Source: a virus (Duplodnaviria; Heunggongvirae; Uroviricota; Caudoviricetes). Taken from it: DNA of 50,733 nt. Position numbers: made by a program. This document shows positions 30,001 through 33,683 of this stretch, piece by piece. Position 1 is the stretch's first letter. Every line of letters starts with the position of its first letter. The stretch lies in the IMG/VR virus record IMGVR_UViG_2778261237_000025. One strand, written 5' to 3'.

Positions 30001-33000
30001 TTGAGGTGAGGGAGTGGTGGCAGCTCAACGAGGAGCCGGGGACGTTCCGCATCGTTGTTGGCGTGCTTGAGCAGGGTATTACCGAGGAAATGTATCAGGA
30101 GCTGGAGCGTCTCGTTGCTGATGCAAAACCTGCAAGCCGCCATCTGACGGGACTGGCTATCAGTTTAAGTACAACCGGCAACATTTTTGCCGGTGCGGGA
30201 TGCTATCACGGCGACGCCCTGACGGTTTATCCCTACACCCCGGAGGCCATTATTGTCGGAGGGGATTATTTCCCGGCCTCGGCCATTCATTTAATTGATA
30301 ACCTGAGAGTAAACGCATGACAGTGAAATACTACGCCATTCTGACTAATCAGGGCGCGGCACGGCTGGCTAACGCGACGATGCTCGGCAGTAAGCTGAAT
30401 CTGACGCAAATGGCCGTTGGTGATGCAAATGGTGTCTTGCCGACACCTGACCCGGCACAGACAAAACTTATTAACCAGAAACGCATCGCGCCGCTGAATC
30501 TTCTGAGTGTTGACCCGAACAACCAGAGCCAGATTATTGCGGAGCAAATCATCCCTGAGAACGAGGGCGGATTCTGGATCCGTGAGATTGGGCTTTATGA
30601 TGATGAAGGCGTACTCATTGCGGTGGCGAACTGCCCGGAAACGTACAAACCGCAGTTACAGGAAGGCAGCGGTCGTACCCAGACTATCCGCATGATTCTG
30701 GTTGTCACGAATACCGAAGCCATCACGCTGAAAATCGACCCGTCGGTGGTACTGGCGACCCGTAAATACGTGGATGATAAAGTCCTGGAATTAAGGCTGT
30801 ATGTGGATGACCAGATGAGAAACCACATTGCCGCACAGGATCCTCATACCCAGTATGCGCAGAAACATAATCCGACATTTACCGGAGAACCAAAAGCGCC
30901 AACGCCTGCCGCAGGAAATAACACCACGCGGATTGCGACCACTGAGTTTGTTCAGACCGCTATTACCGCTCTGATTAACGGCGCGCCAGACACGCTGGAC
31001 ACACTGAAAGAAATTGCCGCGGCCATTAACAATGACCCGAAATTCAGCACCACCATTAACAATGCGCTGTCAGGTAAGCAGCCACTGGATGAGACGCTGA
31101 CTCATTTGAGTGGAAAGGATGTTGCCGGTCTTCTCGCATACCTTGGTTTGGGAGAAGCGGCAAAACGGGATGTGGGGACAGGGGAAAATCAGATACCGGA
31201 CATGGCCTCTTTTGCCAGTGGTGATGGATGGATGAAATTACCCAACGGTAAAATCCTGCAATATGGTCGTGGTGCGGTTACGCCGACATTATCGACGCAA
31301 ACAATGAGAATTACATTCAGCATCCCTTTCCCCAAAAAAGCGGACTGCGCCATGCTTACTCATTCTGGTGATGGCGGTGCGCCTTTAGGCGCTGGGCGAG
31401 GGTTCGTGATGACTGCAGAAGGCCCAACGTTAACCGGCTTTAATTCTGCTTACAGAACGTCATCAACCAGCGACACGGTATCGATGAATTACAGTTGGTG
31501 GGCTGTTGGTGAGTAATTTTATTCAGGGTGATTTATATGGACGAATATGTTTATAGCGCAAGGCATAATGCTTTTTTCCCTGTGGATATGATTGATAAAT
31601 ATAAATCAGAGGGATGGGATTTATCAGACGCTAAGGAAGTAAATCAAAATATTATCAGTGAGTTTATGGCTGAACCGCCACAAGGAAAAATCCGTATTGC
31701 CGGAGATGATGGGCTGCCTGCGTGGGCAGATATTCCTCCACCCACGCATGAAGAACTTATTGAAATTACTGAATCAGAAAGACAGCTACTAATTAACCAG
31801 GCCAACGAATACATGAACAGTAAGCAATGGCCCGGTAAAGCCGCTATTGGTCGTCTGAAAGGTGAGGAACTGGCACAATATAATTTGTGGCTGGATTATC
31901 TGGACGCACTGGAGCTGGTCGATACCGCCAGTGCGCCAGATATTGAATGGCCTACGCCTCCGGCAGTTCAGGCCAGATGACATCCGGCGCGGTGCTGGTA
32001 TCTGTTGCCGTCACCGCGTCAATGTAATCCAGCACGGCGTTAAGTCGGGTTGTTTCTGCCTGAGTCAGTTTCCGTCCGGCCTGTAACTTCAGCTGAATCA
32101 GACTAATGGAAGCCATTGCTGCATCAATCAGTGATTGGCGCTGTGCTTCTGCCGCGTCTACTGCGGCACTGTGTTGTGCCTCAGTGTCTGTCACCCATTT
32201 CTCACCATCCCATTTATCGTATGGCGTTAACGGTGAAATCGTGACATAACCGTCTTTGATGGCACCGATATAATCCACTGTAACAGCTGCGCCATTTTCG
32301 ATTGAGTAAACAGTCTCATTGCGATGGTCTTCTTCATGGCTCCATCCCTTACCTGTAAATACTGCCACTCTTCCCGGAATGTTTTCGCCAGGGTCAATAC
32401 CAGTGGAACAGGCGGGCATACTTACGCCAGTATTAATATATTCATCAGACCAGCCCGTATACTCAGATGTTTCAGCATCATAATAAAAACAACGCATATC
32501 GCCCGGCACTGTAGCCAGCCCATTTTCATCAAAAACAGGTTTCATTATTTAGCCCTCACCAGAAAGTTAAATGCAATATTTCGCGGTCTGACTGCAACAA
32601 AATTCACACCATCACCCACAGAGTTACTGGTGAAATTAAATCGTGAAAATCCTGGCTGATTTCCGGCGATGCCATCATGAAAGTTAATTGCGTGTCCCGC
32701 ACCTTCGCCTATATTCCCGGCAAACTGAGAAAAGTTTGTAGCTGCCTGCCAGCTTAATAATTCGCGACCACCGTCTGCACCTCGCCCGTCATCCCAGATA
32801 CGAATGAAATCACCGCGGGCTTCAGGTAATACCAGCGAAGGAAACACTTTCGCCAGCACAGGATAATCAGTGGCAGAGAATTTCGCGCCGTTGAACTTCA
32901 AAAACACCATACAGGACCAGCTGTCGATTACAGTATTTGGCATTGCAGCGGACGGCCAGAAGAACGGAACGCCAATAGCTGGAGCACCTTCTCCCAAACC

Positions 33001-33683
33001 AACGTTTATGAAAATGCAGAAATAACGAGCAAATGGCATCATTCCTGCTTTTGTCAGGGAGATCTACCATGCTTATTGGCTATGTACGTGTGTCAACAAA
33101 TGACCAGAACACAGATCTACAACGTAATGCGCTGAACTGTGCAGGATGCGAGCTGATTTTTGAAGACAAGATAAGCGGTACAAAGTCCGAAAGGCCGGGA
33201 CTGAAAAAACTGCTCAGGACATTATCGGCAGGTGACACTCTGGTTGTCTGGAAACTGGATCGGCTGGGGCGCAGTATGCGGCATCTGGTCATTCTGGTTG
33301 AGGAGTTGCGCGAACGTGGCGTTAATTTTCGCAGCCTGACGGATGCTATTGATACCAGTACCCCAATGGGGCGCTTTTTCTTTCATGTGATGGGGGCCCT
33401 GGCTGAAATGGAACGAGAACTGATTGTTGAACGAACAAAAGCTGGACTGGAAGCTGCTCGCGCACAGGGACGAATTGGTGGACGTCGTCCCAAACTTACA
33501 CCAGAACAATGGGCGCAGGCCGGACGATTAATTGCAGCAGGAATTCCTCGCCAGAAGGTAGCGATCATCTATGATGTTGGTGTATCGACACTGTATAAGA
33601 AGTTTCCGGCCGGAGATAAATGAAACCGTAGCACGTCGTATGCAAGATCGTGCTGCGGTTTATGCTTACCACTTGAAGATTCA

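Follow-up and report, generated by a model that had tools for sequence, protein, structure and literature searches.

A probable Din-family inversion switch for a P2-type tail fibre in a composite of phage and Sp1 sequence

The window, the whole stretch of 50,733 nucleotides of viral DNA analysed here, carries a tail-fibre region that is best read, with a probability of roughly 0.9, as an inversion switch of the Din family (Hin/Gin/Cin/Pin) serving a P2-type tail fibre, the copy in the window being a composite of phage and Sp1 sequence. The crossover sites, the invertase, the in-frame fusion and the occurrence of both orientations in nature are demonstrated parts of this switch. It is of a well-known textbook type and, judging by the sequence matches, both of the elements from which the window copy derives are already annotated in public O157:H7 genomes.

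In the proposed mechanism, a small serine invertase would bind both 26-bp crossover sites; PinE would do so, and very probably also the phage invertase, which is 90% identical to it. Cutting at the central dinucleotides (TT at 31143–31144, AA at 33001–33002) would then invert the 1.86-kb segment. Since the left site falls within H, H(1–276) would be read by the late operon V-W-J-I-H into one of two tips: either Hc (123 aa, gp53-like) with the chaperone gene tfa behind it or, after inversion, H'c (151 aa, Collar-like) with tfa' behind it. The segment itself supplies neither an N-terminus nor an evident promoter, so only the cassette facing H should be expressed, presumably from the late promoter, and a population of lysogens would thus release particles of two receptor specificities.

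Crossover sites and the segment between them

The segment and its flanking sites, together with a third site near the left end of the window, comprise the following features.

30317–31516, + strand: tail-fibre gene H as assembled, an open reading frame of 399 aa
30317–31144, + strand: constant part of H, residues 1–276
31131–31156, + strand: left crossover site, cixL of the phage, TTCTCGCATACC-TT-GGTTTGGGAGAA, with its centre (31143–31144) inside codon 276 of H
31145–31516, + strand: variable cassette Hc of H, 123 aa, gp53-like_C
31537–31980, + strand: tfa, P2 gpG-like tail-fibre assembly chaperone for Hc, 147 aa; Pfam Caudo_TAP, E 8e-31; phage-type alleles by SNP typing
31952–32545, − strand: tfa', chaperone of the silent cassette, Sp1-type, 197 aa, convergent to tfa; Pfam Caudo_TAP, E 2e-27
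32545–33000, − strand: silent C-terminal cassette H'c of Sp1, 151 codons (33000–32548) and stop (32545–32547)
32989–33014, + strand: right crossover site, cixR of Sp1, TTCTCCCAAACC-AA-CGTTTATGAAAA, with its centre at 33001–33002
1074–1099, + strand: the phage's own right crossover site, of the same sequence as the Sp1 right site

A repeat search of the window found inverted arms at 31131–31157 and 32988–33014 (27 nt, 81% complementary), within which the perfect 15-mer TTGGTTTGGGAGAAG at 31143–31157 has its reverse complement at 32988–33002. The initial annotation had recognised this repeat, which stands, and had put its right arm at 33008–33022, 20 nt away from the true position. The 13-mer CTTCTCCCAAACC occurs three times in the window (1073, 31145 on the minus strand and 32988) against 0.07 expected, and the 26-mer TTCTCCCAAACCAACGTTTATGAAAA is present in two exact copies (1074–1099 and 32989–33014) against 0.00 expected; the inverted repeat is real and not a chance match.

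The three sites of the window share an AAACC-NN-GGTTT core and, on sequence comparison, form one family with the gix site of SfMu, the annotated cixL and cixR of D6 and the sites of Fels-2. This core, common to gix and annotated cix sites, bears out the earlier suggestion that the repeats lie within 26 bp of the hix/gix type. The central dinucleotides match, the AA of 32989–33014 being TT on the opposite strand and hence the same as the TT of 31131–31156. As in the Din family, the pair consists of two inverted, imperfectly palindromic 26-bp sites with a matching centre.

H combines the Pfam domains Phage_tail_fib (residues 1–150) and Gp53-like_C (residues 307–398), and the identical 399-aa protein is encoded in 24 long contigs. 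The exact tfa protein occurs in P2-like prophages of many assemblies, and annotations of O157 genomes list tfa' as a tail fiber assembly protein. The H'c cassette of Sp1 has no N-terminus of its own, its stop overlaps the start of tfa' (ATGA), and it gave no match of its own in a Pfam search; it is 40% identical to the Collar-type cassette that belongs to the phage itself.

When the segment is flipped in silico, H 1–276 joins the Sp1 H'c in frame, giving a 427-aa H followed by tfa' with the ATGA overlap. The last 151 aa of this predicted protein are identical to those of the fused fibre protein (264 aa) of strain PA2, in which the Sp1 segment is flipped. H(1–276) joined to the phage's own cassette comes to 439 aa, identical to the product of a gene annotated in L005, L006 and L011, all of which have the segment flipped. 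The contents first assigned to the segment, namely the C-terminus of H with tfa and a silent, reverse-oriented H'/tfa' pair, agree with the open reading frames and the Pfam assignments.

As in the Mu G and P1 C segments, the site lies inside the fibre open reading frame, the C-terminus is exchanged in frame and the cognate chaperone gene stands downstream; the mechanism of this type put forward in the initial annotation is upheld by the gix/cix-like flanks, by the in-frame exchange of tip and chaperone, and by the two orientations in nature. Promoter and terminator scans of 30300–33700 gave nothing above shuffled background. The cassettes belong to different families (gp53-like_C and Collar-like), so the two tips would probably recognise different receptors.

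Invertases of the two elements

33069–33623, + strand: pinE, serine DNA invertase of the cryptic prophage Sp1, 184 aa; Pfam Resolvase (E 8e-52) and HTH_7
1155–1748, + strand: the phage's own invertase, followed by FI (tail sheath), 197 aa; Pfam Resolvase and HTH_7

The true start of pinE, a name that the gene carries in the RefSeq annotation of O157 genomes, is 33069 (MLIGYVRVSTNDQ) and not 33033. Its product is about 79% identical to Mu Gin in the structures 3UJ3 and 4M6F (E 5e-94), and 88%, 83% and 79% identical to the Fels-2 invertase, D6 Cin and SfMu Gin respectively. Catalytic Ser9 in the motif YVRVSTNDQ, earlier reported as intact, is confirmed as such by alignment with the Gin structures. 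The phage invertase occupies the same position in EC4115, GPEC1031 and Fels-2. As in the Din family, the recombinase is a serine enzyme with its active-site Ser and a C-terminal HTH, close to characterised invertases.

Shufflons consist of the tyrosine recombinase Rci and many 19-bp sfx repeats, with multiple inversions; here the recombinase is a serine invertase and there are two sites per segment, which places the system outside that class. Inversion in the Din family needs Fis and negative supercoiling and is strongly biased towards the intramolecular reaction, and its recombinational enhancer, which acts in cis, carries two Fis sites and as a rule lies within the 5' part of the invertase gene. 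The switch described here would presumably depend on Fis and an enhancer as well. In a search for the latter by third-codon conservation, six invertase genes, too few sequences for such a comparison, displayed no raised block in the first 200 nt.

Both orientations in public genomes

The Sp1 segment has the orientation of the window in strain 9000, 86-24 and others, and is flipped in 278 complete genomes, including Sakai, EDL933 and EC4115, in which a synthetic junction was matched over its full length at 99.7–100%. The phage segment is unflipped in EC4115 and SS17 and flipped in TW14359 and at least 24 others (100% junction match); the orientation tables yield no reliable ratio of the two orientations. 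L008 and L009, both draft contigs, stop precisely at the central dinucleotide of the crossover site that is the partner of the left site, and draft contig L010 has the invertase-side flank at both ends; going by these three contigs, orientation is mixed within cultures. The presence of both orientations among complete O157:H7 genomes, combined with contigs that stop at the central dinucleotide, indicates that inversion is active, and on the evidence of these assemblies the Gin/Cin/Pin-type switch at this locus is real.

Composite structure of the window copy

The composite is described with reference to the following further features.

1–594, − strand: the phage's own tfa', 200 aa in EC4115, 100% identical to EC4115 (L003, 17389–17982)
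594–1085, − strand: the phage's own silent cassette H'c, the native alternative to Hc, 163 codons; Pfam Collar, E 2e-15
8505–8539: att core, 35 bp, between ogr and int; window 1–8539 corresponds to the attR side of EC4115 and 8505–32035 to the attL side
31931–32035: 105 bp of exact identity between phage and Sp1, spanning the 3' ends of the convergent tfa and tfa', with the change from phage to Sp1 inside

The segment had initially been taken for the own module of a single P2 relative, a view that had to be abandoned: its left part belongs to a P2-like prophage and its right part to Sp1 (99.9% over 10.5 kb). Up to about 31930 the window, including H, Hc and tfa, is P2-like prophage sequence, and from about 32036 it is sequence of the Sp1 / thrW island of O157:H7, to which tfa', H'c, the right site, pinE and all that follows are assigned. 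Between 31223 and 31930 each of the 10 diagnostic SNPs has the phage allele, and every one from 32036 onwards has the Sp1 allele, so the changeover lies inside the 105-bp exact repeat and not at the crossover site. A phage/Sp1 join made by an invertase at the crossover site had first been suspected because identity to O157 Sp1 begins exactly at 31140; SNP typing rules it out, since phage alleles persist to 31930.

The phage part matches the yegQ/yegR P2-like prophage of E. coli O157:H7 (EC4115/TW14359 type). Window 1–8539 is 100% identical to it, and the alignment of 8505–32233 with the EC4115 prophage is 99.9% identical, with a single mismatch (31540) over 30300–32035. H, Hc, tfa and the left site are shared with the prophage, whose own cassette, right site and invertase are those at the left end of the window. 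Behind tfa, EC4115 has the prophage's own tfa'-H'c-site-pin-FI, and the whole is bounded by attL and attR, whereas in the window tfa runs into Sp1 sequence and ogr-attP-int is contiguous. The native order, with the phage's own cassette directly after tfa, is found in EC4115 and in 24 of the 24 long contigs examined. The order of genes is P2-like (Q-P / O-N-M-L-X-Y-K-lysA-lysB-R-S-V-W-J-I-H-G ... FI-FII-E-T-U-D-ogr-att-int-C-cox-A), as established from the EC4115 annotation, the 99.9–100% identity and the Pfam families of identical contigs. With the att core between ogr and int, attP is intact and the phage map is circularly permuted in the window.

At the left end, the initial annotation had noted yet another cassette. 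A third cassette is indeed present, but it is the phage's native partner cassette with its own invertase, and the module also holds the third crossover site and second invertase gene, which had been overlooked. The window starts inside the phage tfa', which therefore lacks its last 9 nt; contigs identical to this gene carry Caudo_TAP_N and Caudo_TAP. Positions 1–75 are identical to 31961–32035, the first difference falling at 76.

The Sp1 part is equally close to its source: window 31140–41700 is 99.9% identical to strain 9000, with no mismatches from 31931 on, and the two have tfa', H'c, the right site, pinE, the GIY-YIG gene and the AraC gene in common. The left site of Sp1 in O157 genomes comes after a 111-aa fibre stub behind a broken replication gene, whereas the window has a complete P2-type H. 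The Sakai annotation describes the element as 'prophage Sp1, lambda-like phage; pinE'. By these comparisons, the window copy is unusual only in its Sp1-derived right half and invertase.

Origin of the phage/Sp1 join

The join may be an assembly artefact, and the chance of this is put at about even. A circular phage copy, excised or replicating, and the chromosomal Sp1 share the 105-bp repeat and would form a loop in a de Bruijn graph, which the assembler would have walked once and left via the Sp1 edge; the cell would then keep the canonical segment, with its own cassette and invertase. A circle and a chromosome that share a repeat have the same graph topology as a circle integrated at that repeat, and the first 75 nt of the window are exactly the final 75 nt of the repeat, which is the mark of a k=75 graph edge. 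Other drafts of the locus are chimeric or broken at repeats or crossover sites (L010, L012, L008 and L009), and neither junction occurs in any finished genome among 5,426 complete E. coli genomes. An artefact would, however, require more attP reads than attR reads, and hence massive excision or replication of a normally quiet P2-type prophage, and the assembler resolved a longer repeat of 505 bp correctly in the same contig.

A real relocation, whose chance is rated a little short of even, would place the P2-like phage inside the Sp1 invertible segment instead of at yegQ/yegR, through RecA-type recombination in the shared Hc-tfa sequence. This could have come about by excision of the phage and Campbell-type insertion, or by a chromosomal inversion between Sp1 and the prophage followed by an Int-mediated attL x attR inversion; both routes would lead to Sp1-left / phage-right / attP / phage-left / Sp1-right, and the phage H would be left with the silent cassette and invertase of a cryptic prophage in place of its own. 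A single hypothesis thereby covers both odd adjacencies, attP at 8505–8539 and the phage-to-Sp1 change at 31931–32035. At 35 bp the att core falls below the inferred k of 75, so that real reads must underlie the ogr-attP-int join, and phage alleles are consistent across the 505-bp exact repeat, with a single switch in the contig. Paralogous segments do exchange, the Sp1 segment of the complete genome PA2 carrying phage alleles, and defective prophages are known to donate DNA to temperate phages by homologous recombination (PMC3945230). Draft contig L007 joins Sp1-left to phage-right-attR-yegQ, although this contig too is only a draft, and its switch falls within an exact repeat. A single chromosomal inversion between Sp1 and the prophage was rejected, as it explains the right junction (as in L007) but not the contiguity of ogr, attP and int.

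Public sequences count against relocation. The hybrid junction at 100% and a contiguous attP were each found in 0 of 5,426 complete E. coli genomes, the best match to 31700–32300 there being 99.0%; the reciprocal hybrid of the L007 type had no 100% match in complete E. coli genomes; and the arrangement is canonical in all 24 long contigs with the same H protein. The reciprocal junction was not assembled either, since the window opens precisely on the final 75 nt of the repeat. The attP 70-mer, absent from GTDB representatives, also occurs in an IMG/VR phage contig of 33.6 kb. Neither IMG/VR nor the GTDB representatives contain the exact 126-nt hybrid pattern; a single metagenome hit, L014, belongs to a different phage that is only 94% identical around it.

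It is suggested tentatively, at somewhat less than even odds, that an active P2-like phage moved by homologous recombination via the shared fibre cassette from attB into the Sp1 segment. If relocation is true, H would alternate between its own tip and one donated by Sp1, under the Sp1 invertase, in an array with two invertases and four crossover sites; an infectious phage could carry the Sp1 cassette away after imprecise recombinational excision, and capture of a host-range cassette from a defective prophage would have been caught in the act. More generally, a real composite would mean that paralogous invertible segments of the same chromosome act as portable homology, by which receptor-binding cassettes and invertases could pass between an active phage and a cryptic prophage, and by which a prophage could move to another chromosomal site, with a bearing on phage host-range evolution and on structural variation in O157:H7. 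For annotation, the fibre gene is to be read as a constant part with alternative cassettes, and contig breaks or chimeras are to be expected at this locus.

Possible host role of the Sp1 half

Sp1 is decayed: its integrase is disrupted by an IS, its replication gene is frameshifted and its fibre gene has shrunk to the 111-aa stub and a cassette. Yet its segment is kept and flips in hundreds of genomes. This is compatible with an unlikely proposal, that the Sp1 half (tfa', H'c and pinE) serves the host, a chimeric fibre fragment blocking the adsorption of other phages; in e14, inversion of the P segment by PinQ yields StfE2, which blocks T2 adsorption (PMC12529663). Conservation could, on the other hand, simply reflect the recent common ancestry of O157:H7. 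Such a role is an addition to the inversion mechanism, not an alternative to it. A fossil repeat, with sites and gene present and a switch that no longer inverts, is highly improbable given both orientations among near-identical genomes, mixed orientation within single assemblies, and intact invertase reading frames with the catalytic Ser.

Relation to known inversion systems

The G segment of Mu is closely similar in its invertase (about 79% identity for Gin), in its 26-bp sites, which are of the same family as SfMu gix, and in its layout, with two convergent pairs of tip and chaperone genes (S/U and S'/U') and an invertase gene adjoining the right site. It differs in its Mu backbone, as opposed to the P2-type one here, and in its length (about 3 kb against 1.86 kb), and the cassettes are partly unrelated, the gp53-like_C tip among them. 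The C segment of P1 and D6 shares the AAACC-NN-GGTTT core in the annotated D6 cixL and cixR, and D6 Cin is 83% identical; D6, which is related to P1, has cin on the opposite side of the segment with respect to the fibre gene, and these are plasmid prophages.

The P segment of e14 in K-12, with PinE, also combines the fibre remnant of a cryptic prophage, an invertible segment and a pin gene, in another element at another locus, a likeness of description rather than of sequence comparison. Its phase variation was measured by sequencing and PCR (PMC4272514), and it can be inverted in trans by another Pin, PinQ (PMC12529663), which supports the idea that either invertase of the window could flip either segment.

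Among P2-like prophages, inversion was verified experimentally in EPEC (PMC4272514). One prophage of EPEC E2348/69 has more than two sites and is shufflon-like, with four variants, whereas here there are two sites per segment. Fels-2 of Salmonella has the order H, G, G', H', invertase, FI, an invertase 88% identical to PinE, and the sites TTCTCACATACC-TC-GGTTTAGGCGAA and TTCGCCTAAACC-GA-GGTTTATGAAAA; the cassettes of Fels-2 and of the E2348/69 prophages are other ones. The switch had been presented as a departure from P2. P2 itself is not known to have such a switch, and this much stands, but the novelty was overstated, as an invertase between G and FI is a common feature of P2-like prophages: the same arrangement is found in Fels-2 and pro483, and a megablast query running from H to just past pinE matched 3,483 of 5,426 complete E. 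coli genomes.

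Organisation of the invertible tail-fibre segment

The gene content between and around the crossover sites, as proposed in the initial annotation, matches the open reading frames and domain hits, which include a tail-fibre gene (H), its chaperone gene (tfa), a convergent silent pair and an invertase gene. Three crossover sites are present in the window.

Genes and crossover sites of the tail-fibre segment
30317-31516, H (Pfam Phage_tail_fib and Gp53-like_C)
31537-31980, tfa (Caudo_TAP)
31952-32545, minus strand, tfa', convergent (Caudo_TAP)
32548-33000, minus strand, silent cassette without N-terminus
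33069-33623, invertase gene pinE (Resolvase and HTH_7)
31131-31156, left site TTCTCGCATACCTTGGTTTGGGAGAA, inverted relative to the other two
1074-1099 and 32989-33014, right-type site, 26-mer TTCTCCCAAACCAACGTTTATGAAAA, two identical copies

The top inverted repeat in a scan of 28000-35000 has 27-nt arms at 31131-31157 and 32988-33014 (81% complementary). The 15-bp core had been correctly located in the left arm (31143-31157) but misplaced in the right arm at 33008-33022, the perfect inverted 15-mer being at 32988-33002. The chance expectation for site matches is 0.00 to 0.07 (dinucleotide-preserving shuffles). When the SfMu, D6 (a P1 relative) and Fels-2 loci were scanned with a palindromised version of the window site, the SfMu gix site, both annotated D6 sites (cixL/cixR) and two Fels-2 sites were found, all sharing the core AAACC-NN-GGTTT with the window sites.

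The left site lies within codon 276 of H. When 31145-33000 is inverted in silico, H stays in frame at 427 residues and tfa' follows with an ATGA overlap. The final 151 residues of this H are identical to the naturally fused fibre protein of E. coli PA2, in which the segment has the opposite orientation. A 439-residue protein results when H(1-276) is joined to the cassette at 597-1085, and genes for an identical protein are called in three independent contigs. There are three cassettes: the one currently in H (Hc) has a gp53-like_C tip, and the other two are Collar-like and 40% identical to one another. In RefSeq, H of strain EC4115 (L003, 18427-19626) is a truncated pseudogene with a separate 'gp53-like' ORF. 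The EC4115 DNA has no mismatches to that of the window's intact 399-residue H over the aligned stretch 30300-31516 (H start 30317), and the split looks like an annotation artefact typical for invertible fibre genes.

PinE is ~79% identical to Mu Gin (solved structures 3UJ3 and 4M6F; E 5e-94), and alignment with the Gin structures shows the catalytic Ser to be intact, as first noted. Identity is 88% to the Fels-2 invertase, 83% to that of D6 and 79% to that of SfMu. Every sequence test places the system in the Din family of tail-fibre-linked inversion systems, and it works like Mu G/Gin, P1 C/Cin, e14 P/Pin and Fels-2; only the search for a recombinational enhancer, by third-codon conservation across six invertase genes, gave no signal. 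Directly 3' of pinE, a LEM-3-like GIY-YIG nuclease-domain gene (33681-34505, minus strand) is kept in O157 genomes.

Inversion in natural isolates

Junctions predicted by inversion were built and searched in 5,426 complete E. coli genomes. This search found the Hc|pinE junction full-length at 99.7-100% identity in 278 genomes, including Sakai (annotated there as 'prophage Sp1 ... pinE'), EDL933 and EC4115. In strains 9000, 86-24 and many others the Sp1 segment is oriented as in the window. The junction of Hc with the phage's own invertase gene, pin (1155-1748), is matched at 100% by TW14359 and by at least 24 further genomes, and the opposite orientation of the phage segment is found in EC4115 and SS17. 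EC4115 and TW14359 are isolates from one 2006 outbreak. Two draft contigs (L008, L009) terminate exactly at the central dinucleotide of the site, and in a third (L010) both segment ends are flanked by invertase-side sequence, as expected only if both orientations occur in the sequenced DNA. For P2-like prophages of EPEC, sequencing and PCR have likewise demonstrated inversion of tail-fibre segments (PMC4272514). Given these genome orientations, contig breaks and the EPEC precedent, the proposed inversion mechanism stands, and the tail-fibre switch is functional in nature.

Canonical P2 is not known to have a tail-fibre inversion switch, but this does not make the present relative unusual. The arrangement H-G-G'-H'-invertase-FI is common among P2-like prophages and RefSeq already contains both source elements under these annotations, so that the switch, although correctly identified, is ordinary.

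A composite of phage and Sp1

The initial annotation missed that this copy is composite. Positions 1-8539 are 100% identical to the attR side of the EC4115 P2-like prophage (between yegQ and yegR), and 8505 to ~32035 match its attL side (one mismatch in 30300-32035; 99.9% identity over the full 8505-32233). The two matches share a 35-bp att core between ogr and int, so the phage map is circularly permuted, with an intact attP.

Order of phage modules in the window
1-1748, the phage's own tfa', cassette, site and invertase
then FI through D, and ogr
8505-8539, attP
then int through H, Hc and tfa

The window's match to the O157:H7 thrW island (99.9% identity) runs from 31140 to at least 41700, where the O157 sequence used for comparison stops; the island carries cryptic prophage Sp1, pinE, the GIY-YIG gene, an AraC gene and others. 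Hc-tfa is nearly identical between the phage and Sp1 segments. All ten diagnostic positions in 31223-31930 are phage-type and the sequence is Sp1-type from 32036 on, which places the join inside a 105-bp exact repeat (31961-32035 being its last 75 nt) at the 3' ends of the convergent chaperone genes and rules out a join at a crossover site. The join results from homologous exchange, whether this took place in the cell or during assembly.

An assembly artefact, at a probability of about 0.5, is rated only marginally above a real relocation. Window positions 1-75 are the last 75 nt of the same repeat, resembling the first k=75 de Bruijn edge after a repeat node, and the window most likely begins at the start of a short-read contig. 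Its right end (50733) coincides exactly with the start codon of a LysR-family gene, as if a provirus caller had cut there at a gene boundary. Real relocation of the phage into the Sp1 segment is almost as likely: attP requires real reads, as its core is just 35 bp, allele phasing is consistent through a 505-bp repeat, and recombination between the two segments is evidenced by phage alleles in the Sp1 segment of PA2, a complete genome, and by draft contig L007, which joins Sp1-left to phage-right-attR-yegQ. Against it, the 5,426 complete genomes contain neither the hybrid junction (best match 99.0% over 31700-32300) nor a contiguous attP, and all 24 long contigs encoding the window's H protein have the canonical arrangement. 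Assembly graphs look the same for a free phage circle that shares a repeat with the chromosome and for a phage integrated at that repeat, so the contig by itself fits both readings. The ogr-attP-int junction also occurs in a 33.6-kb IMG/VR phage contig.

In PA2 (NZ_CP145944.1, 20001-20376), the Sp1 segment has EC4115 phage alleles at 31223, 31249 and 31540, and two phage copies (L006, L009) have the Sp1 allele at 31755; such mixtures are patchy gene-conversion tracts between the paralogous invertible segments. In L007 (GCA_011904065.1, AARDWE010000015.1, 1-14912), the Sp1-left repressor, cro, cII, fibre stub and left site are followed by the phage's own tfa', cassette, pin and FI...ogr-attR-yegQ, with the allele switch within 31541-31754. 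This join would be expected from an inversion of ~2.5 Mb with end points in Sp1 and the prophage; alternatively, it is another assembly chimera.

The composite is the only potentially new element and, if true, would represent an active phage and a defective prophage exchanging cassette and invertase (PMC3945230 describes temperate phages that gain DNA from defective prophages by homologous recombination). A Pin enzyme is reported to invert the e14 segment in trans, blocking phage T2 (PMC12529663), a parallel hinting that the conserved Sp1 segment might serve the host.

Neighbouring genes

A three-gene Lamassu defence system, LmuA-LmuC-LmuB (E 3e-108, 1e-52 and 1e-235; 32-39% GC), is intact and occupies 14570-18259, the P2 cargo hotspot between replication gene A and portal gene Q; the EC4115 prophage has the same genes, annotated 'ABC-three component system'. 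A second Lamassu-like set (36933-41445, very low GC of 28-33%) lies behind a tyrosine integrase as part of the O157 thrW island and appears decayed, with LmuA in two ORFs and LmuB in three. Directly downstream (42133-48069) are P4-like satellite genes (ogr/delta-like zinc finger, psu, sid-like, icd-like and primase), called from the annotation of the identical region in PA2, placing a P4-like satellite next to a helper-type P2-like phage in one contig.
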